Origin: an uncultured Thiotrichales bacterium
Lineage (GTDB): Bacteria; Pseudomonadota; Gammaproteobacteria; UBA4575
DNA length: 64,000 nucleotides
Assembly (NCBI GenBank): GCA_964614915.1
Contig: CAZTNC010000015.1
Coordinates: 19,096 to 83,095, forward strand
Reading direction: 5' to 3'
In this document: piece after piece, positions 4,441 through 54,581 of the stretch
How positions within the stretch are numbered: the stretch's first letter is position 1
Layout of the letters: every line of letters starts with the position of its first letter
Notes under the pieces: generated by a model
The model's database searches: none
Seen by the model: only the letters and a program-made list of their open reading frames with translations
What the model was told of the DNA's origin: nothing
Position numbers and translations under genes: made by a program

Positions 4441-5751
4441 ATGGCAGAGCGCACTGTTACGGTAACCGACAACACGACCGGAAAGGCGGTCGAATTGCCC
4501 GTATTGGAGGGCACCAACGGCCCTCGCACCATCGATATTGGGAAACTGTACAAGGGCCTGGGCTATTTCACCTATGACCCGGGCTTTGTTTCCACGGCCA
4601 GCTGTGACAGCCGCATCACTTTTATCGACGGCGAACAGGGCCTGCTGCGTTACCGGGGCTATCCGATTGAACAGCTGGCCGAGCACAGTTCCTTCCTAGA
4701 GGTCTGCTACCTGCTCCTGCACGGCGAGCTTCCGAACAAGGACGCCTTCGATGCCTTTGAGGAGCGGCTGAAGATGCATACCCTGCTCGATGAGAAGATG
4801 CGCCGCTTCTACTTGGGTTTTCACAACAACTCGCACCCGATGGCTATGATGGTGGCTACGGTGGGCGCGATGTCCGCCTTCTACCATGACCAGATCGATG
4901 TGCACGATGCCGCTTCCAGGGAAACGGCCGCCTACCGCCTGATTGCCAAAGTACCGACCATGGCCGCCTGGGTCTACAAGTACACGGTGGGCCAACCCTT
5001 CATGTACCCAGACAATCGTCTGGACTATGTGTCGAACTTCCTGTACATGATGTTCGGGGTACCTTCCATGAGTTACCGTCCGAGCCCCTCGTTCGTGCGG
5101 GCCATGGACCTAATACTCATATTGCATGCTGACCACGAGCAGAATGCCTCCACCTCCACCGTACGACTGGCCGGTAGTTCGGGAGCTAACCCCTATGCCG
5201 CCTTATCCGCTGGCATCAGTTCGCTCTGGGGTCCTGCCCACGGCGGGGCGAATGAAGCCGTCATCAACATGCTTGAAGACATTGTGCAGTCCGGCAAGGA
5301 CGTCAACTACTACATCGAACGGGCCAAGGACAAGAACTCCAGGTTCCGGTTAATGGGATTCGGCCACCGAGTCTACAAGAACTATGACCCGCGCGCGAAG
5401 ATCATCCGGGAAGTCTGTCACCAGCTGTTGAGCGAACTTGGCGATGACAATCCCAATCGACCCCTGTTCGATACCGCCATGGAACTCGAGCGCATTGCTC
5501 TGGAGGACGATTACTTCATTCAGCGCAAGCTGTACCCGAATGTGGACTTCTACTCCGGGATCATTTTGCGTGCGATGGGAATCCCGCTGAACATGTTTAC
5601 CGTGATCTTTGCCCTGGCCCGTACGGTCGGCTGGATTTCCCATTGGAAAGAACACATGAGCGACCCGCAGGCCCGCATCGGCCGTCCCCGTCAGCTGTAT
5701 ACGGGAGAGGACCAGCGCGACTACGCGCACATCGACGAGCGCGACGACTAG
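4441..5751 (+). CDS. gltA: citrate synthase (type II, hexameric-type)
   Basis: 436 aa, full-length similarity to GltA including the catalytic His/Asp regions (GFGHRVYK). Confidence 0.92.
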
Positions 5752-6902
5752 CCGATTCCGGTAAAGAATTCCCTCAGTACAGGCGCGAAGTTCGCTTCAT
5801 CGATTAGGAACGAGTCGTGCCCCTGAATGGAGGGCAGGCGCACGAACTTGATGTCGCACCCGGCCTTGTTGATTCCGTTATAGATCTCTTCTTGCTGCTT
5901 GATCGGGAAAAGAATATCCGTCTCGACCCCGACGACCAGCGTCCTGATGGAATGGATCTTGGCGAGCCCTGCATTGACGGACCCCCCATGGTCAGCGACA
6001 TCAAACCAGTCCATGGCCCTTGACAGGTACAGATAGCTGTTGGCATCGAAGGCATCTACAAATTTGTGGGCGTTGTAGTCGAGATAGGATTCGACTTCAA
6101 ACTCGATGCCGAACTTGTTCTTGGCCTTGCGCCCAGAGTCCACCCGCGCACGGTTGAAACGCTGGTTCCATTCTTCACCCGCGCGGTAGGACACAAGGCC
6201 GATCTTCCTGGCCAGGACCATGCCGTCTTTGGGTTCCTTGTCAGGCTGGTAATGGCCGCCTTCCCAAGCGGGGTCACAGCGCACGATTTCACGCTGTATG
6301 GAACGCATGGCGATGGCCAGCGGCAAGGACCGGCAGGCCGAAGAGATCGTTACAAGATTACCCACTTCGTCGGGATACTGCAGCGCATAGGCAAGCGAGG
6401 TCATGCCTCCCATGGAAGATCCAACTACTGCACAAAGATGATCGACCCCCAGTTCCTGGACGGCATGATGGCCAGCCTTGGCAATGTCCTCGATCGAGAG
6501 ATCCGGGAAATCCAGGCCGTATGACCTGCCGGTTCTGGGATTAACCGAACCCGGTCCTGTCGTACCAAAGCAGCCTCCCAGGGAATTGACACACACGACA
6601 AAAAAGCGGTTGGTATCAATCGGCTTGCCTGGCCCGATCATGTACTCCCACCAACCTGGGGACGGGTCCTCACTGGACGAACAGGCATGTGCAGTAGGTG
6701 ATAGGCCGGTAAAGACAAGCACGGCATTGTCCCGCATCTCCGAGAGCTTGCCCCAGGATTCATAAGCCACCACCACCTCGGGCAGGGTCCCGCCACGGTG
6801 CATGTGGAAGTCGGTCGTACCGTAATCGCCGTGCAGTTCCACGAAGCGGGTAGCCGGTGGTGTCCAGCGAGACGTCGGTTCCAATTTTTTTGCTGTACTC
6901 AT
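5748..6902 (-). CDS. metX: homoserine O-acyltransferase MetX (alpha/beta hydrolase)
   Basis: 384 aa; GSSMGG nucleophile elbow and the overall MetX pattern; convergent with gltA and overlapping its stop codon. Confidence 0.85.
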
Positions 6903-6974
6903 TGCATAAATGTACCTTTTTCCATTTCCGGAGGAAACACTACCAAGGGGTATGGTATGGCCTGTCTGGCCGGT

Positions 6975-7463
6975 TTAACGGGGCCTGGACGTAAGAACCA
7001 GCGAGAGTACCAGTAACCCGATGAACAAAATCAGTGTTTGTTGCGGGATGGTCAGTCCTGCGAAGGTCCAGTGCACCTCTGCGCATGAGCCCGAGGCTGT
7101 GAATACCTTCTTGGCGACCTCAAGGACTGGCAAGGTTTCAAGCATGAAATACAGGTCCGGCCCGCATTCGGGTACCTGATCGGCCGGCAGGCCCTGCAAC
7201 CAGACACGTCTTCCAGCAAGCCCGACCCCAGCGAGGCTGAGCGCGGTCGCCAGTGTCCCGTATATTCTTGACAGGAAGGTTTTGGGGTTGGAGATCAGGG
7301 CCAAGGCAAATACGATCCCGAGAGCTACCAGCACGAGGCGGTCCAGAATGCACAGGGGGCAAGGGTCCAGATTCAGCGCGCCCTCAAGATAAATGATTGC
7401 AAACAGCAGCGAAGCGATGCATGCCAGAAATCCATAAAAATTCAGCGCTCGGTAGCCGAACAT
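6975..7463 (-). CDS. dsbB: disulfide bond formation protein B
   Basis: 162 aa with four TM helices, CPLC in the first periplasmic loop and a second Cys pair (C...C) in loop 2. Confidence 0.8.
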   Translation of the reverse strand: MFGYRALNFYGFLACIASLLFAIIYLEGALNLDPCPLCILDRLVLVALGIVFALALISNPKTFLSRIYGTLATALSLAGVGLAGRRVWLQGLPADQVPECGPDLYFMLETLPVLEVAKKVFTASGSCAEVHWTFAGLTIPQQTLILFIGLLVLSLVLTSRPR

Positions 7464-7472
7464 GTCCAGGTC

Positions 7473-8015
7473 TCAGGTCTGTTCCATGCCGTGGAGGATG
7501 GCCGCCAGTCCCCGGTACCAGCCGGTAATGTCCTGTAGCGAGAACGCAGCATTCGCTGGGCTCGGGTTGGGGCTGACAAATACGGCGGAATGCCCGATGG
7601 TGATGGATTGCATACCCCAGTCTATCGGCGCATCGGTATGTCCCGTGTACTTGAAGAAGTTTTTCGCGGCCATTTTGCCGTGAAACCAGCAGATACCCGG
7701 CGCGTACCGCAGGATTTTTTTCTCTAGCACAGGCGCCCATTCCCTGTAGTCCGCAGCCCTCAAAGCCTTCGCGGATGGCGAGGGGCGCTTGACCACATCC
7801 GTGAATCCAATCCGGTGCAACTGGAAGAGCCTCGCCTGGAATTGTGGGCCGGGTATCACCTTTTCCGAGACCAAGCCACTGGCATCCAGCGCTCTCCAGA
7901 ACCGGTTTCTCGGATTGGCAAAGTAAAAGCCCTTCTCGACCGAAATGCTGGAAGGATTGAGTCCGATAGACAGTGCTTTCAGTTCGTGATCAACGTAGTC
8001 AGGGAGTGTGTCCAT
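7473..8015 (-). CDS. mug: G/U mismatch-specific DNA glycosylase (Mug/TDG family)
   Basis: ORF open to 8126, but the likely start is the ATG at 8015 (MDTLPDYV...); GLNPS ... NRFW ... LPNPSP motifs of the Mug family. Confidence 0.75.
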   Translation of the reverse strand: MDTLPDYVDHELKALSIGLNPSSISVEKGFYFANPRNRFWRALDASGLVSEKVIPGPQFQARLFQLHRIGFTDVVKRPSPSAKALRAADYREWAPVLEKKILRYAPGICWFHGKMAAKNFFKYTGHTDAPIDWGMQSITIGHSAVFVSPNPSPANAAFSLQDITGWYRGLAAILHGMEQT

Positions 8016-8142
8016 ACGGTGCCTGCAAGATTGCGGATTGAGGTATCGCAGTGCATTCGATACCCTATACCCTGATTCGAGTATAAAAGTAAACGCCATC
8101 TTGCCCGTGCCTGCCGATCCGACCAATTATTCCATCACCACC

Positions 8143-9373: not shown

Positions 9374-9817
9374 ATGACCGAAATCACGCTAGAAATCGCC
9401 AATACAATCATTGATGCTGCCCTCCGGGAAGGCCGCACGCGCAAGCTGGCACCACTTACAGTTGCCGTACTGGATGCCGGCGGCCACCTCAAGGCTTTGT
9501 CGCGGGCGGATGGCGCAAGCTTCATGCGCCCGATGATGGCCGTAGCAAAGGCCTGGGGCGCGATCGGTGTCGGTGTCTCATCACGCACACTGGGCGAGAT
9601 GGGCGAGCAGCGGCCAATGTTCATGAATGCCCTGGTCCAGGTTGCTGACCAGCGGCTTTTACCCGTGCCCGGAGGCGTGCTCGTCCGAGATTCCGACGAT
9701 GCGATCATTGGTGCAGTCGGCATCTCCGGCGATGTGTCCGACCAGGACGAATCTTGTGCCGTTGCGGGAATCAGTGAGGCCGGGTTGCAGGCGGATACGG
9801 GAAAGCCCCAGGAGTAA
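9374..9817 (+). CDS. GlcG/HbpS-like haem-binding protein (DUF336)
   Basis: 147 aa, ...GAVGISGD... C-terminal motif typical of DUF336/GlcG; last core gene before the AT-rich island. Confidence 0.7.
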   Translation: MTEITLEIANTIIDAALREGRTRKLAPLTVAVLDAGGHLKALSRADGASFMRPMMAVAKAWGAIGVGVSSRTLGEMGEQRPMFMNALVQVADQRLLPVPGGVLVRDSDDAIIGAVGISGDVSDQDESCAVAGISEAGLQADTGKPQE

Positions 9818-9823
9818 ATTTTG
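9815..9823. repeat. left copy of a 9-bp direct repeat TAAATTTTG flanking the AT-rich island (right copy at 13695-13703)
   Basis: exact 9-mer at both GC-content transitions; an inverted TTATGTAG/CTACATAA lies just inside each copy. Confidence 0.3.
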
Positions 9824-9848
9824 GGAATTATGTAGCTAAGTTGACAAA

Positions 9849-10034
9849 ATGAATAAAGCAGAAAAGACAAAAAGAGAATATTTTGCTGAACTTAGTAAAA
9901 ATTATAAAAAACGTAAAGAGTATGAATGTGAATTAAATAATGCCATAACCATGGTTCATAAAACATTTGCTGTTTTAGATAAATTACTTAACGACTACTA
10001 CAAACTGTTTCCTGAACGGAAAAAGCAGAAATAA
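9849..10034 (+). CDS. hypothetical Lys-rich small protein (61 aa)
   Basis: ORF in very AT-rich DNA, where long ORFs are unlikely by chance; no convincing RBS. Confidence 0.2.
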   Translation: MNKAEKTKREYFAELSKNYKKRKEYECELNNAITMVHKTFAVLDKLLNDYYKLFPERKKQK

Positions 10035-10212
10035 GTTTTTCCATTTTCTCTAATTTCTCTATCAACGTTTCCGAAGCGTTTTCTAACTTTACGATTTCTT
10101 TTCTTAGTGATTTTGATAGATGGTGACCAGCTATTGTTTCTGTTTTAACTAATGTCTCTATCAGAACTAGCATCATTATTTCCAGGGCTTCGTAATTCCC
10201 ATTATTTCCCAT
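9988..10212 (-). CDS. hypothetical coiled-coil small protein (74 aa)
   Basis: GAGGGG Shine-Dalgarno 8 nt upstream of the ATG; heptad-like Lys/Glu-rich sequence; overlaps the 3' end of ORF 9849-10034 convergently. Confidence 0.35.
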   Translation of the reverse strand: MGNNGNYEALEIMMLVLIETLVKTETIAGHHLSKSLRKEIVKLENASETLIEKLEKMEKLISAFSVQETVCSSR

Positions 10213-10250
10213 CTTTATCCCCTCATTTTAGTTTTAAATAAATACGAAAC

Positions 10251-10279
10251 TTGACAAAATAATATTATTTCACTAATAT
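10251..10279 (+). promoter_or_regulatory. sigma70-type promoter TTGACA-N17-TAATAT upstream of the IS1595 transposase
   Basis: consensus -35 and near-consensus -10 with 17-bp spacer, about 80 bp upstream of the transposase ATG. Confidence 0.5.
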
Positions 10280-10358
10280 AGTGTTATGTTAATTCGTAAT
10301 GTAACACCTTACAGTGCAGGTTAAAAACAAACCAGTCGTCCTGAGTCTCTACGAAATC

Positions 10359-11246
10359 ATGGATCGATACAAGACCAAGGAAGACGCCATTTGCTACTTT
10401 GAAAAAATGCGATGGGGTGACAAGCCCGTATGCGTCAAGTGTGGTTGTACAGGCAGGATTACGGCACAGAAGAAAGTCGGTGATTACTGGTGTGGAGACT
10501 GCCGGAGTTACTTTAATGCTTTCACTGGCACTCCACTAGAACGCAACAAGGTAGACCCTCGCAAGTGGATTTACGCCACCTACACCCTGATGACTTCACG
10601 GAAAGGTATTTCCAGCCTTCAACTGTCCAAAGAAATTGGTGTGCAGCAGCGCACTGCCTGGTACATGCTGCACCGGCTGCGTCTGGCCTGCGGCGACAAT
10701 ATGGAAGCCTTGCACGGTGAAGTTGAAATGGATGCAACATACATCGGTGGACTTGAAAGGAACAAGCACGCTGACAAAAGGTTGAAGTCCGGCAGAGGTA
10801 CGGTAGGTAAACAGGCTGTGCTCGGTATGAAACAGCGCGAAGGACGGGTAAAGGCCATATCGGTTGAGGGTGAAGACAAGGCAACTATTCACAGTGCTGT
10901 TCTTGCAAATATTGAAGTGGGTACGACTATCTATACAGATGATCATAGGGGCTACAAGAATATCGGCGGGACTATATACAAACATCAAACCGTCAAGCAT
11001 TCGGCAAAGGAATACGTGAATGGCATGGCTCATACCAACAGCGTCGAGTCTGTATGGTCAGTGCTCAAACGCGGCTTCAATGGTGTCTATCACAATTGGA
11101 GCAAAAAGCATTGCCAACAGTACGTGAACGAATTTACCTTTCGGCTGAATGAAGGGAATTGTGATCGAGACACCCAGGACCGGCTCGACGATCTGTTCAA
11201 GGCGATGTCGGGTAAAACGATAACTTATAGAGCGCTGACTTCTTGA
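10359..11246 (+). CDS. IS1595 family transposase (N-terminal zinc ribbon plus DDE_Tnp_IS1595)
   Basis: CVKCGC...CGDC zinc ribbon; IYTDDHRGY, HTNSVESVWSVLKR and YVNEFTFRLN motifs characteristic of IS1595/ISXO2-like transposases; ORF open from 10314, ATG at 10359. Confidence 0.85.
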   Translation: MDRYKTKEDAICYFEKMRWGDKPVCVKCGCTGRITAQKKVGDYWCGDCRSYFNAFTGTPLERNKVDPRKWIYATYTLMTSRKGISSLQLSKEIGVQQRTAWYMLHRLRLACGDNMEALHGEVEMDATYIGGLERNKHADKRLKSGRGTVGKQAVLGMKQREGRVKAISVEGEDKATIHSAVLANIEVGTTIYTDDHRGYKNIGGTIYKHQTVKHSAKEYVNGMAHTNSVESVWSVLKRGFNGVYHNWSKKHCQQYVNEFTFRLNEGNCDRDTQDRLDDLFKAMSGKTITYRALTS

Positions 11247-11279
11247 GCGTAGTCTTGCTGTTATTCAAACAGCGTTCAG

Positions 11280-11813
11280 TTAAGCGGAATTTTCTGCACG
11301 TTTAAAATCTTTTGCAGAAAACCGGTACCAGTTGCGGAACAAATGTTGCCACCACTTTACTGGTTGAAAATCATCTGAGCCAAACCCAAGCGCCTGTGAT
11401 GCGGCATTTCCGCACTCAGCATTAAGAGCGTGATAGATAGCAGGTTCATCCTCATAAACGCTGAGTATTTCTTGACGCCACTTATGTATTTCCTTTTCAT
11501 CAGCTTTATACACGTCGATCATCTTGGCAATTTCATAAAAACGCTTCGCAAGAAATTCATGGTTACGTGCCCTGTCTGCCAGGCCCCACACCATGTTGAT
11601 AGCCCCTATTGTAGTGGGTATAAGCATGATAAACATGGCAACTGCTTTGTTGGCTTCTGCAAGCTGCCACACGGCATAACTGCCTGACAGCAATACTGCT
11701 ACCATCAGCCACCTGTGCCATTTATCAAAAAAAGATCGTCGTGCAGTGTGGTAGCGAGCGCTACGGTCACAATCATGCAGAAAATCTTTTGCTTCCTGTT
11801 GCAGATCAGTCAT
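11280..11813 (-). CDS. two-TM membrane protein with about 100-aa cytoplasmic C-terminal domain (SLATT-like architecture)
   Basis: 177 aa; TM helices at about aa 35-51 and 57-78; start ATG overlaps the stop of the upstream peptide gene (ATGACTGA). Confidence 0.55.
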   Translation of the reverse strand: MTDLQQEAKDFLHDCDRSARYHTARRSFFDKWHRWLMVAVLLSGSYAVWQLAEANKAVAMFIMLIPTTIGAINMVWGLADRARNHEFLAKRFYEIAKMIDVYKADEKEIHKWRQEILSVYEDEPAIYHALNAECGNAASQALGFGSDDFQPVKWWQHLFRNWYRFSAKDFKRAENSA

Positions 11814-11949
11814 TTTTTCTCGGCGGTGTTACATCTCTTGGAGGTTCGTTAGAGTGAGTCTTATCTGGCGAATCATGTGCAGGTATATCTTTAGGTGGCG
11901 GCGGCGGCGGTTGGCGAACAGGTTGCGGCTCTTTTCTATCCTTTGACAT
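11806..11949 (-). CDS. proline-rich small protein (46 aa, MSKDRKEPQPVRQPPPPPPKD...)
   Basis: not in the supplied ORF track (<60 aa); AAGGAG Shine-Dalgarno 6 nt upstream of the ATG at 11949; stop overlaps the start of the downstream 2-TM gene. Confidence 0.35.
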   Translation of the reverse strand: MSKDRKEPQPVRQPPPPPPKDIPAHDSPDKTHSNEPPRDVTPPRKND

Positions 11950-11994
11950 GGTCATCTCCTTAAAAATACTAAGTTTAGTTTAACATTTTTTTAA

Positions 11995-12996
11995 TTATTC
12001 ATGAGGTAGAGGACAATCTATGCAGCCTCCTGGAGGTGGTGTAGCACCTGAATTGGAATTCTTGAAAGCGGCAGTTGACCCATAAAAAGCCCCGACAAAA
12101 CTTACAGGGCCTACATTGGTTATTGTCGCAGAACCTCCATGGGTTCCTGCCACCATGCGAGGGTTGCCATCAGAATCATCTTCAGACGAGAATCGACCAC
12201 CCCAACGTCCTCCCATATTGGCAACACCCAGTTGCGGATTCTGAAGCACCACCTCGCTTCCAGTAAACGAGCCGTCAGCATTGATGCTGGCGTCAATTAG
12301 CTGGAGTACGAATGGAGTCAGCACGTACCGGCCTCCCTGTAGCAATTCTATGTTCGTAATATCCCCGTCAACGGTCATGGCCCCGGTACTGAAGTCTGCT
12401 TCAAGAAACAGGCTGCCCCGGTACTCTCCCGTAGCCGAACCAAGTACGTAGGTGCCACCTGTAATCCCGTTGTAATCGACTTCACCTACGTTTACGGGAA
12501 TTGTCGGCTGTGTAGACGTTGAAAATTCTTCGCCGTCCACAAAAGCCCCGATTTCCACGCTTCCACCCGATGATCTGTAGGACCAGTACCCACCCGCCAG
12601 GTAGTCCGTAGCATCACCCGAATTCCAGTCCACCAACACACCGGCTCTAACGTTGCTTCCAACCAAAGTACCTGTCTGGGACATTCTTCCCGTAACTGAA
12701 CTGGTTTCAGGATTCTGGATGATGGAAGAACCGCTCGTATTCAATGTAAATGAACTACCTCCTGCACGGGCTACCGTGACTTCAAAACTTGATCCGGGTG
12801 TGAAACGTGTACTGATGGTGTCCGAAGCTACTGCCTGGATAATACTTGTCCCAAACACCGGTGGTGACATGGCGGCTCGTTCTGCGGCATCACTGTAGGA
12901 TACGGGTGGGTTGACAGGGGCAGGATCGCTTCCGCCTCCACCTCCGCCTCCACAGGCGGACAGCAGCACTAAGGCTGCACATAGAATTCTTCGCAT
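11995..12996 (-). CDS. surface-lipoprotein-like protein with fHbp/TbpB-type C-terminal beta-barrel signature
   Basis: lipobox LLSAC followed by a GGGGGGGS tether; G-YRG-LF-EADF-TG-M-VDGDI resembles the G.YRG..F...A.F.DF...G.I motif of neisserial fHbp/TbpB barrels; ATG at 12996 with a GAGG Shine-Dalgarno (ORF open from GTG 13035). Confidence 0.6.
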   Translation of the reverse strand: MRRILCAALVLLSACGGGGGGGSDPAPVNPPVSYSDAAERAAMSPPVFGTSIIQAVASDTISTRFTPGSSFEVTVARAGGSSFTLNTSGSSIIQNPETSSVTGRMSQTGTLVGSNVRAGVLVDWNSGDATDYLAGGYWSYRSSGGSVEIGAFVDGEEFSTSTQPTIPVNVGEVDYNGITGGTYVLGSATGEYRGSLFLEADFSTGAMTVDGDITNIELLQGGRYVLTPFVLQLIDASINADGSFTGSEVVLQNPQLGVANMGGRWGGRFSSEDDSDGNPRMVAGTHGGSATITNVGPVSFVGAFYGSTAAFKNSNSGATPPPGGCIDCPLPHE

Positions 12997-13182
12997 GGTT
13001 GCCTCGCGTAAAGTGACGTTTTTTACTTCCGACACAAGGGTGCCGGGCCATTGTCACTGTACGCAAGTATGCGGATAGTTCCTGCCTATTCGCCGTGTGT
13101 CAGATAGCTACTTCTGACACATATATTCGGCTGTTGTATTCAGTAGGTAACCCGACTCTGGATTACTCACGCACAGTGACAG

Positions 13183-13191
13183 TGTTATAAT
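13183..13191 (+). promoter_or_regulatory. extended -10 promoter TGTTATAAT for the small two-gene cassette
   Basis: TGnTATAAT about 30 bp upstream of the AAGGA Shine-Dalgarno and ATG at 13223. Confidence 0.45.
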
Positions 13192-13222
13192 AGGCTTACA
13201 GATTAATCTGCACAAGGACCAA

Positions 13223-13386
13223 TGGATAAGATTCAGGAAAAGATAGACAAGGTTGCTAAAACCTTGTTAAACATGCCTGCTCCACAAGAGCACAAACGCA
13301 CGATTCCCACCAAGAAAGACCTTGAACGCAAGTTTGTCATGCGGGTTGACCGCAAAGGCAAACCATCTGTACGTGAGATCAAATGA
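13223..13386 (+). CDS. hypothetical hydrophilic small protein (54 aa)
   Basis: not in the ORF track (<60 aa); good Shine-Dalgarno; stop overlaps the start of the next gene (ATGA). Confidence 0.35.
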
Positions 13387-13580
13387 TGATTGTAGAATTT
13401 TTAACAATGATCACGGCTGCTGCTGTGATTGTAGGGATGCTTGTAAAATTATATTTTAAAATTGATCGATTAGAAAAAAGACTAGATAAGCTAGGTATTA
13501 CCAAAGTCACATACAGTAAATACCCTGCAGACATTGATCATATGGAAGACGGAGAAATCTGGGTGCAATACGAAAAATAG
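13383..13580 (+). CDS. hypothetical small membrane protein (65 aa, one N-terminal TM helix)
   Basis: translationally coupled to the ORF at 13223-13386. Confidence 0.4.
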   Translation: MMIVEFLTMITAAAVIVGMLVKLYFKIDRLEKRLDKLGITKVTYSKYPADIDHMEDGEIWVQYEK

Positions 13581-13694
13581 CGTTTAAGTTTAAATATTAT
13601 TTTTCACGTATCTTCTGCTTGAATCTCATCATATAAGAACTAAAACTTGGCTAAGGTATCCCCTGTACCCTGCCAAGTTAACTACATAAGTCCC

Positions 13695-13703
13695 TAAATT
13701 TTG
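13695..13703. repeat. right copy of the 9-bp direct repeat TAAATTTTG flanking the AT-rich island
   Basis: exact match to 9815-9823; followed by the hairpin CCGGGC-N9-GCCCGG. Confidence 0.3.
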
Positions 13704-13776
13704 TACCGGGCGGTGATGCTGCCCGGAATCGAACACCAGCAAGATTTTCGTTCCACCGTGTATTTTGGGAGAGACT

Positions 13777-53324: not shown

Positions 53325-54581
53325 GTGCAGCGCAGTCCCCTGCAAGTCCTGACCCGCGCGGCCTGGCTTTTGGCCATGGCCTTGGGTGCACAAGTATGTG
53401 CAGGCAGTGAAATTGACTACGAGGTCTTCGGGCACGTCGGGGTCGAAAATCGCTGGTACCCTGAAAATGCTGCCTATCCAGGTCAACCAGACCTTGCCAG
53501 CGGAATCGTTCTGGAACCGGAATTCTATTTTGAGAGTGTCGAGGGCTGGAGTTTCACCCTAATCCCATTCTTGCGTCATGACAGCGCTGATCCGGATCGC
53601 AGCCACGCAGACTTGCGGGAAGCGTATTTCCTGCTGCTCGGTGAAATTGGAGATGGCGAGTGGGAATTGCGCCTCGGCATGGACCGGGTGTTCTGGGGAG
53701 TTGTTGAGTCACATCACCTGGTGGATATCATAAATCAGACCGATTTGATTGAGCACCCTGATGAAGAGGTCGAACTGGGCCAACTCATGGCACATGCCAC
53801 CTGGTCCGGGAATTGGGGCGCAGCTGAGCTGTTTATCCTCCCACATCATCGGGAGCGTACCTTTCCAGGCCGCAAGGGTCGCCTGCGTTCATCACTTGTC
53901 GTGGAGGACGACGATCCTACCTACGAAAGTGGCGCGAAGGAATGGCACATGGATTTTGCGGTCCGGTACAGCCAGAACTTCGGGCCTTTTGATATAGGCG
54001 TGAGTTTTTTTAACGGCACCGGCAGGGACCCTCTTCTGCGACCTCAGGTCAGTGAACGACGCAACGGGGAACTGGTCTTAGTCCCGCATTATGAGCAAAT
54101 ACGCCAGTTTGGTATCGATGCACAGCTTACTACTGATGAGTGGCTGTTCAAGCTTGAAGCCATTCACCGCGCCGATTCCCAGAATTTGCGCTATGTGGAG
54201 GAGGACTATGCCGCATTTGTGATCGGTGCAGAGTACACGTTTTATTCTATACTCGGGACCGCTGCTGATTTTGGAGTCCTTGGCGAGTGGTGTTACGATG
54301 AGCGAGGCAAGGACGCAACGAACATTTTCGACGATGATCTACTCATCGGCATACGCGTAGCATTCAATGACATCCAGAATACAGAGATTTTCTCCAGCCT
54401 TCTGAAAGATCGGGACTATTCCACCAGTGCCTTTGTGATCGAGTTCAACCGCCGGATTTCTGACCGGTGGTCCGCAAATCTTGAACTTTTCTCACTGTTC
54501 AATGTAGAAAAAAAAGATACTCAGTTTGACCCTATCCGACGCGATAGCTTTTTGGAATTTCGCCTGAACTACAACTTTTAA
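53325..54581 (+). CDS. putative outer-membrane beta-barrel protein
   Basis: signal peptide, alternating amphipathic strands, C-terminal ...LNYNF with terminal Phe; 4 bp downstream of the LolA-like gene; GTG start. Confidence 0.5.
   Translation: MQRSPLQVLTRAAWLLAMALGAQVCAGSEIDYEVFGHVGVENRWYPENAAYPGQPDLASGIVLEPEFYFESVEGWSFTLIPFLRHDSADPDRSHADLREAYFLLLGEIGDGEWELRLGMDRVFWGVVESHHLVDIINQTDLIEHPDEEVELGQLMAHATWSGNWGAAELFILPHHRERTFPGRKGRLRSSLVVEDDDPTYESGAKEWHMDFAVRYSQNFGPFDIGVSFFNGTGRDPLLRPQVSERRNGELVLVPHYEQIRQFGIDAQLTTDEWLFKLEAIHRADSQNLRYVEEDYAAFVIGAEYTFYSILGTAADFGVLGEWCYDERGKDATNIFDDDLLIGIRVAFNDIQNTEIFSSLLKDRDYSTSAFVIEFNRRISDRWSANLELFSLFNVEKKDTQFDPIRRDSFLEFRLNYNF

Follow-up and report, generated by a model that had tools for sequence, protein, structure and literature searches.

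A 64,000-nucleotide stretch of DNA from an uncultured Thiotrichales bacterium (contig CAZTNC010000015.1, positions 19,096 to 83,095), here called the window, encodes a lipoprotein of 333 amino acids (aa) at window positions 11995-12996 on the minus strand. This protein is an unannotated member of the cargo fold of Slam, or the type 11 secretion system (T11SS), in a branch that makes up a large unnamed family. We consider it probable that it is a Slam-type surface lipoprotein whose gene has a leader RNA of its own, and that the pair of open reading frames (ORFs) just downstream, a polyproline ORF and a gene for a protein with two transmembrane segments (2-TM), is a separate mobile module. A sequence-only reading of this DNA had placed the three genes in one operon and offered two explanations, an uncharacterised display or effector module or a Slam substrate whose Slam is encoded elsewhere. 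The region stands out for three things: a mobile family of symbiont genes that crosses phyla, a covarying leader that resembles sRNA-Xcc1, and a polyproline upstream ORF paired with a SLATT-like gene.

The lipoprotein begins with the signal peptide MRRILCAALVLLSAC (residues 1-15, 12952..12996, minus strand), in which an n-region and an h-region lead to the lipobox L-S-A-C, and continues with GGGGGGGSDPAPVNPPVSY. The LLSAC lipobox, the GGGGGGGS that follows it and the Pro-rich tether noticed earlier are all seen in this ORF. Gly occupies positions +2 to +8, so that the Asp inner-membrane retention signal is missing. A Gly/Pro linker (about residues 16-33) and a helix (34-43) lead into a beta "handle" (about 51-155), which holds the family motif DYLAGGYW at residues 131-138, and then into an eight-stranded barrel (about 172-307). 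Barrel strands 2-3 carry the motif GEYRGSLFLEADFSTGAMTVDGDITNIEL (residues 190-218, 12343-12429, minus strand), whose counterpart in the family consensus is GEFxGxxxLTADFxxxTISG; the sequence-only reading had recognized this motif and put it in the C-terminal third, and it lies in the C-terminal half. A ribosome-binding site (RBS), GAGG, stands 6 nucleotides (nt) ahead of the ATG at 12996. An alternative start, a GTG at 13035 giving 346 aa, would extend into the leader hairpin described below. The tail of the protein (about residues 308-333; 11995-12075, minus strand) reads ...NSNSGATPPPGGCIDCPLPHE and ends in GGCIDCP. Its C-x-D-C motif recurs in the closest homolog, P0002 (GGGCVDCPPTGG), and has no counterpart in the remaining family.

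Structure comparison assigns the fold. Two-domain structures align with the lipoprotein over 171-194 residues, the alignments to hemophilin, fHbp and HpuA covering 179-193, and Foldseek concurs. The mature protein is a beta handle followed by a C-terminal eight-stranded barrel of the TbpB_B_D/Lipoprotein C type, the architecture of Slam cargo such as TbpB, fHbp, HpuA, NHBA and hemophilin; what defines Slam cargo is a variable domain at the N-terminus together with an eight-stranded barrel (PMC12282271). The earlier call of an fHbp/TbpB-type barrel is upheld by both kinds of comparison, and similarity to these barrels was found by structure and, in relatives, by hidden Markov model (HMM). The Pfam model TbpB_B_D, proposed as a check, misses the query itself and weakly matches 19 of 70 family members, with a best E-value of 2.1e-5; FHBP_C is matched weakly by three of the 70.

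The lipoprotein has 133 homologs of about 350-400 aa, none of which has a name. A profile of 70 members, searched against 1.84 billion representatives, collects 359 clusters (50% identity) at E<=1e-30 and 986 at E<=1e-10. Besides DYLAGGYW, the family motifs are GAFVDGPE, GTATYxGxAxGLY, LTADFxxxTISG, GSWGGRFS, PRLVAGTxGG and FVGAFYG. The signal peptide with lipobox is a trait kept across the family: a start of the form L-x-[AS]-C-GGGG is found in nearly all members, and the Nitrospirales, Binatia and Rhodothermales proteins are no exception. Because nearly all of the 133 homologs share the lipobox and the poly-Gly run, the 333-aa ORF can be taken as a real member of a gene family. No invariant His, Cys or Met appears in the family alignment.

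A scan of a genome collection returned 47 loci for the family. By record title, 25 belong to Alphaproteobacteria (Defluviicoccus, Paracoccaceae, Rhodospirillaceae and others), eight to Gammaproteobacteria (including Arenicellales and Ca. Poriferihabitaceae), nine to Nitrospirales/Nitrospira, two to Binatia, one to Rhodothermales, and two are unclassified. To judge from bin names alone (Spongia_Bin9, SB0662, RHO, APA, Poriferihabitaceae, Plut), many of the hosts appear to be members of sponge or coral holobionts. Clustering of neighboring ORFs over the family loci found no conserved partner gene. Neighbors that do recur are tyrosine recombinases (13 loci), IS1595 transposases (10 loci, the window among them), other transposases and a hybrid histidine kinase. 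Several genomes hold more than one copy: a Nitrospira bin has four paralogs inside 11 kb (L006, 6339-8601 and 14751-16999), the family gene is present twice at each of three more loci (L002, L003 and L005), and a single Paracoccaceae chromosome accounts for three scattered family loci (L027, L042 and L047). Two long homologs, P0263 (699 aa) and P0393 (1519 aa, with six matched stretches), resemble tandem fusions.

Slam genes are found close to three family members. A filter for ORFs resembling outer-membrane proteins brought up two of them, one 240 nt downstream of the family member at L015 (SlipAM E-value 3.8e-28, plus TPR_Slam) and one 160 nt downstream of the member at L048 (SlipAM E-value 3.5e-15). 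At L176, the context of the homolog P0004 (42% identity), a SlipAM gene lies 3.8 kb upstream of the family member. Since three relatives adjoin a Slam or lie within 4 kb of one, a Slam substrate with its Slam elsewhere is the better of the two explanations in the sequence-only reading. That reading went too far in holding that such lipoproteins normally sit beside a Slam gene: only about 52% of 353 curated Slam genes adjoin a lipoprotein gene (PMC5449769). The host of the window is a gammaproteobacterium, a lineage in which a Slam is plausible. The fHbp and NHBA genes are not known to adjoin Slam genes.

The lipoprotein gene is preceded by a structured 5' leader of about 165 nt (13023..13184), which, like all of its parts, lies on the minus strand. 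From its 5' side the order is a hexamer resembling a -10 box, the 5' strand of helix P1, CCCG, segment b, the 5' strand of P2, the conserved loop UGAAUACAACAGC (13130-13142) and a variable hairpin, P3 (13093-13129), whose loop is frequently GUAGCU or UUUGGCC. The 3' half follows with the second conserved loop, GAAUAG, and the P2 3' strand, the P1 3' strand, GGCCCGGCACC (segment b') and a hairpin strand that pairs with b'; about 20-40 nt separate the end of the leader from the RBS, after which comes the AUG. P1 pairs 13164-13184 with 13049-13069, and P2 pairs 13143-13147 with 13081-13085. Segment b, GUCGGGU (13150-13156), pairs with b', GCCCGGC (13042-13048), in a helix that crosses P1, and a 3' hairpin (13029-13046) competes for b'. 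Because the invariant b' can pair either with upstream b or with the downstream hairpin strand, the leader appears to act as a cis-regulatory switch. The candidate -10 box, TATTAT (13187..13192), was read from aligned instances and ends 2 nt before P1 begins; it was not called by a strict sigma-70 scan. In other instances, comparable A/T-rich hexamers lie roughly, though not exactly, as far away. A terminator-like hairpin with a T tract (13247-13267, minus strand), some 60 nt ahead of the leader, would insulate the leader promoter from upstream transcription.

Conservation of this element runs ahead of that of the proteins behind it. Short-word BLAST finds the leader region about 93% identical at the matching place ahead of several homologs, whose proteins share only about 35%. 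The sequence of P1 varies in every lineage, and its pairing is always kept. Among 27 instances, cognate P1 duplexes have energies of -27.5 +/- 4.9 kcal/mol, against -12.5 +/- 5.1 kcal/mol for non-cognate ones. Over 23 instances, with the P1 register fixed for each sequence from its own duplex prediction, 93.1% of cells are paired, compared to 70.2% in shuffles (0/500), and the covariation score is 0.660 versus 0.205; slid controls give 35-44%. Double changes occur in all 12 P1 pairs and all five P2 pairs, while 98.8% of cells allow b-b' pairing and 95.7% allow that of P2.

By nhmmer, 20 of the 47 genome loci have the leader ahead of a family member, as do L175 and L176; it was found at no Nitrospirales locus. 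It occurs too ahead of unrelated small signal-peptide proteins, at L049 (twice), L050, L164 and L064, and a further copy lies in L173. Loci with the leader, besides the window, are L002-L004, L011-L013, L015, L016, L019-L021, L023, L025, L026, L028, L030, L033, L043, L045, L046, L049, L050, L055, L064, L159, L164, L173, L175 and L176. A metagenome scan with GCAAYGGCCCGGCACC returned 120 loci, of which four have the full leader and the remainder are chance 16-mer matches. In L045, a metagenome-assembled genome of Binatia (8002-8066 and 9783-9869), an insertion of about 1.7 kb with inverted ends (..GGAGTCTGTAG / CTACAGACTCC..) splits the leader within P3 and is probably an insertion sequence (IS).

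No Rfam family matches the leader at gathering level. The best Rfam match for three independent copies, and the only one consistent among them, is RF02221, sRNA-Xcc1, aligned over the full model in each. It scores 21.0 bits in the window, 24.1 in L049 and 32.6 in L015 (E-value 2.6e-4 when 191 nt were searched), and none of these reaches the gathering score of 53. We place the leader in the sRNA-Xcc1 family as a divergent variant, used in cis. P1 consists almost wholly of Watson-Crick pairs and is as stable on one strand as on the other, and an integron attC site or other DNA hairpin was therefore considered as well. That candidate was rejected because the leader interior is kept in sequence, because b-b' and P2 use U:G pairs that are A-C mismatches on the other strand, and because the element always stands between an A/T-rich, -10-like hexamer and a downstream RBS. 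It is the U:G pairs and the position relative to hexamer and RBS that set the strand of the leader, which P1 alone does not reveal. A tie to IS110 bridge RNA or seekRNA found no support in a literature search.

The two ORFs downstream of the lipoprotein gene are a different matter. The polyproline ORF (11806..11955, minus strand) had been described as a peptide of 46 aa; its Pro-rich character stands and its length does not, since translation from the first ATG gives 49 aa, and from the one with proper spacing to an AAGGAG RBS, 47 aa. It contains 14 Pro, including PPPPPP, and ends ...EPPRDVTPPRKND, overlapping the start codon of the 2-TM gene. The latter (11280..11813, minus strand) shares 8 nt with the end of the polyproline ORF, stop codon included (AATGACTGA), and encodes, as previously reported, 177 aa with two hydrophobic segments. 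The AlphaFold2 model (pLDDT, a per-residue model confidence, of 82) is a long helical hairpin. The protein belongs to the phage protein family phrog_11791 (E-value 1.3e-32, residues 2-166 on profile positions 4-169 of 173), as do all 21 of its homologs. NCBIfam SLATT_4 is matched weakly by 16 of the 21, at best at 7.7e-9; the 177-aa protein scores 20.5 bits against a cutoff of 55 and so falls short of SLATT membership. It also matches the PADLOC "2TM effector" model with an E-value of 3.3e-4.

This pair has a distribution of its own. At all six other loci examined, it is present without the family lipoprotein. Three-frame translation reveals a polyproline ORF ahead of the 2-TM homolog at six of six loci, with the shared C-terminal motif (E/S)PPRDV(T/P)PPR(K/E): L049 (about 5868-6003), L050 (about 5779-5943), L173 (about 4890-5010), L174 (about 4875-5008), and L171 and L172 (just upstream of position 5001-5200). 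At L050 this ORF stops some 57 nt short of the 2-TM ATG; at the other five loci it uses another frame and runs up to or into that ATG. L171 and L172 are prophage early regions, with RecT, YqaJ, SSB, DnaB and an S24 repressor. The 2-TM gene lies directly beside an IS1595 transposase gene in the window, L050, L173 and L174, and about 5.5 kb from one in L049. Long, low-complexity N-terminal "extensions" of some 2-TM homologs were considered as a fused domain and discarded, as they come from translating the polyproline ORF in the wrong frame; in this family, database entries of 220-236 aa (e.g. P0129-P0134) appear to contain the same misreading. No SMODS, SLOG or cyclase gene was found in seven contexts of the 2-TM family. 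Targeted literature searches turned up no description of a polyproline upstream ORF before SLATT-like proteins.

By phmmer, the 177-aa and 49-aa proteins are absent within 10 kb at all 47 lipoprotein-family loci, and of the three relatives closest to the lipoprotein, two, P0003 (57% identity, L175) and P0004 (L176), likewise have neither ORF beside them. The polyproline ORF and the 2-TM gene are thus a self-contained, conserved pair of prophages and IS1595 surroundings, and not partners of the lipoprotein. The association of peptide and 2-TM protein is real, yet it is a property of mobile elements, since it is kept in mobile contexts and is absent at lipoprotein loci. As a mechanism, runs of Pro codons may stall ribosomes, and the overlapping stop and start would couple translation of the 2-TM gene to passage through the upstream ORF. 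In L049, directly downstream of the 2-TM homolog, a 279-aa protein (6613-7452, plus strand) shows motifs resembling a TbpB barrel by eye (GSATWEG... and ...GGFGATRQ). As a relative of the lipoprotein family it was rejected; the hhalign E-value of 0.096 is not significant and no Pfam or PHROG family matches.

The three genes lie in an islet of 3.9 kb (9847-13670) with 45% GC, lower than the 54% of the window and the 57-61% of the HbpS-like and ATP sulfurylase genes on either side. An imperfect inverted repeat borders it on both sides, with 40-nt arms at 9807..9846 and 13671..13710 that are 78% complementary. The islet also contains four small ORFs and an IS1595-family transposase gene (310 aa, 10314..11246, plus strand), convergent with the 2-TM gene; the transposase matches Pfam DDE_Tnp_IS1595 (E-value 9.8e-43), a Zn ribbon (1.1e-6) and NCBIfam transpos_IS1595 (7.4e-55, 186 bits against a cutoff of 75). 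Adjacency of the trio appears to have arisen as this low-GC islet, bounded by the inverted repeat, came together between its HbpS-like and ATP sulfurylase neighbors, and the islet might be mobile in one piece. The only other contig with the HbpS-like protein comes from the same run and ends inside the islet, and the sister-genome locus L008 is not syntenic.

Of the other explanations, the one that survives best goes further and takes the 3.9-kb segment to be one IS1595-derived transposon, whose passengers, namely the lipoprotein gene with its leader, the polyproline/2-TM pair and the small ORFs, move together as a selected set of cargo. The inverted repeat brackets the low-GC segment exactly, an IS1595 transposase occurs within 10 kb of the lipoprotein gene at nine other loci and of the 2-TM gene at four others, leader-bearing genes lie near the 2-TM gene in L049, L050 and L173, and some IS1595 subgroups carry passenger genes. 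Yet the sequence of the inverted repeat is lacking at other IS1595 copies, save for a weak match in L174, some 790 nt downstream from the 2-TM gene there, and no inverted repeats of similar length and position were found in L050, L173 or L174. Transposases are abundant in symbiont genomes, moreover, and the co-occurrence may be background. No target-site duplication (an 8-bp direct repeat) was found flanking the inverted repeat, nor was an empty site or a second copy. We regard a single transposon of this kind as unlikely, if worth keeping in view.

The missing duplication and empty site also count against our own preferred account, a Slam-type surface lipoprotein next to a separate mobile module, and a number of other results must be set on the same side. 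No Slam or DUF560 gene was found in the 64-kb window, in agreement with what the sequence-only reading had reported; the 20 ORFs of at least 351 aa that were scanned, a set that left out shadow ORFs and the already identified ATP sulfurylase, gave other Pfam families or none. With the Slams found near relatives as queries, jackhmmer found none within 10 kb in the other 45 of the 47 loci, nor in the window. The lipoprotein itself has no Pfam match at E<=1, and on the NCBIfam model slam_lipo (NF041636) it scores 18.5 bits (E-value 0.0019), short of the curated criterion of at least 80 bits on that model or a gathering-level score on Pfam PF01298 or PF08794. The family profile hits nothing at E<=1 among PDB sequences, so that the link to TbpB and fHbp is one of fold comparison only. 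Slam is known solely from Proteobacteria (PMC5449769, PMC12282271), and the members in Nitrospirales, Binatia and Rhodothermales must therefore use another export route or unrecognised Slams, or else lie on misbinned contigs. Finally, the downstream pair may be co-transcribed with the lipoprotein gene by read-through, given the 39-nt gap between the lipoprotein stop and the polyproline ORF and the lack of a terminator-like site between any of the three genes.

Another explanation is an ordinary outer-membrane lipoprotein that faces the periplasm and shares only the barrel fold, neither surface-exposed nor dependent on a Slam; we judge it rather unlikely. A heme-binding secreted protein or nutrient co-receptor, comparable to HphA or TbpB and served by a TonB-dependent receptor encoded elsewhere, shares the same fold and seems to us unlikelier still. 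Hemophilins are soluble (PMC12282271), unlike this lipidated protein; the recurrent neighbors at the 47 loci include neither a TonB-dependent receptor nor TonB nor heme oxygenase; the family lacks the invariant residues noted above; and the HbpS-like neighbor lies outside the islet. Because the family has no linked TonB-dependent receptor or heme gene, binding of a host factor, as in fHbp or PmSLP, is at least as likely for the lipoprotein as nutrient capture. An operon in which lipoprotein, Pro peptide and 2-TM protein form a display or effector module, with the 2-TM protein replacing Slam or acting with the lipoprotein, is very improbable: the shared strand, close spacing, absence of terminators and common islet speak for it, but the trio is not conserved at the 47 family loci or beside P0003 and P0004, the pair lives without the lipoprotein at six loci (two prophage, three IS1595-adjacent, and L049), a promoter-like TTTACA-17-TATGAT read by eye precedes the polyproline ORF of L049, and helical hairpins of the inner membrane are not known to take part in transport across the outer one.

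Under the reading we prefer, the Slam-type surface lipoprotein would be exported by Sec and then lipidated, Gly at +2 would let Lol sort it to the outer membrane, a Slam from another part of the genome would flip it onto the cell surface, and there the variable handle domain would bind a ligand. A bolder proposal, quite improbable as we see it, joins the sRNA-Xcc1-like leader, as a switch that answers to a ligand or signal and most often controls this lipoprotein family, to a translocon other than Slam in other phyla, making a mobile "symbiosis surface-protein cassette" that crosses phyla and brings its own RNA regulator. If that were true, the leader would mark horizontally exchanged genes for exported or surface proteins of sponge and coral symbionts in several phyla, and Nitrospirota, Binatota and Rhodothermales would display handle-barrel lipoproteins through a translocon other than the proteobacterial Slam.

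The remainder of the window is housekeeping DNA, with genes for citrate synthase, SerRS, FtsK, UvrC and RNase E/G. One ORF of 418 aa (53325-54581, plus strand) has a signal peptide and a C-terminal ...LNYNF and resembles an outer-membrane beta-barrel; its sole family match is a faint one to DUF1302 (E-value 0.005), and it is not a Slam. The four AT-rich small ORFs of the islet, at 13222-13386, 13383-13580 and 9849-10034 on the plus strand and 9988-10212 on the minus strand, match no family. Two of them, of 54 aa and 65 aa, share an ATGA overlap, and the longer of these two begins with a hydrophobic helix.

Slam cargo has been studied almost solely in animal pathogens and found by searching beside Slam genes. 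A large unannotated branch of the Slam-cargo fold in uncultured marine-holobiont bacteria, reaching phyla without known Slam, raises testable questions about how far the Slam-type export route extends and what symbionts display toward their hosts. The conserved leader offers a handle on regulation, and it suggests that sRNA-Xcc1-type RNAs serve as cis leaders of mobile genes and not only as trans small RNAs. The polyproline upstream ORF with its SLATT-like protein makes a compact module that recurs in phages and around IS elements, and it suggests regulation by translational stalling.

Each of these components can be compared with a known system. The 177-aa protein and its relatives recall the SLATT 2-TM effectors (SLATT_4, SLATT_1 and the CBASS-type 2TM) in their weak matches and helical hairpin; unlike those effectors, the 177-aa protein scores below the cutoff, stands alone without SMODS, SLOG or cyclase genes, and always follows a polyproline ORF. 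The islet shares with IS1595 insertion sequences the DDE domain and Zn ribbon of its transposase, and its 40-nt inverted repeat is a candidate element end, but with several passenger genes it is far bigger than a simple IS, and the 8-bp target duplication was not detected. Integron cassettes and genomic islands carry sRNA-Xcc1, a mobile RNA found upstream of symE (bioRxiv 10.1101/2025.06.18.660453). The leader likewise stands upstream of a gene in mobile DNA, and it has the helices and loops of that RNA: an outer helix GNCNGG...CCNGNC, the loops AAUACAA and GAAUA, and a CACCC tail. In place of the local hairpin of RF02221, however, it has a long-range P1 of 15-21 bp that crosses the outer helix, and it adds the large variable P3 and the competing 3' hairpin; it is a 5' leader of genes for exported proteins, whereas sRNA-Xcc1 is a free-standing small RNA.

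For the lipoprotein, hemophilin/HphA (PDB 7re4, 8gm3 and 6om5) is soluble and secreted, and its gene accompanies those of a Slam and a TonB-dependent receptor, whereas the lipoprotein has a lipobox, lacks such neighbors and belongs to a family without a conserved heme-ligand residue. Compared with the known Slam cargo proteins TbpB, LbpB, HpuA, fHbp, NHBA and PmSLP (PMC5449769, PMC12282271), it does not reach the curated HMM thresholds, and most members of its family are "orphans" with neither a Slam nor a TonB-dependent receptor nearby. The family differs from those proteins above all in its range, which extends to Nitrospirales, Binatia and Rhodothermales bins, and in its hosts, which are uncultured marine symbionts rather than mucosal pathogens.

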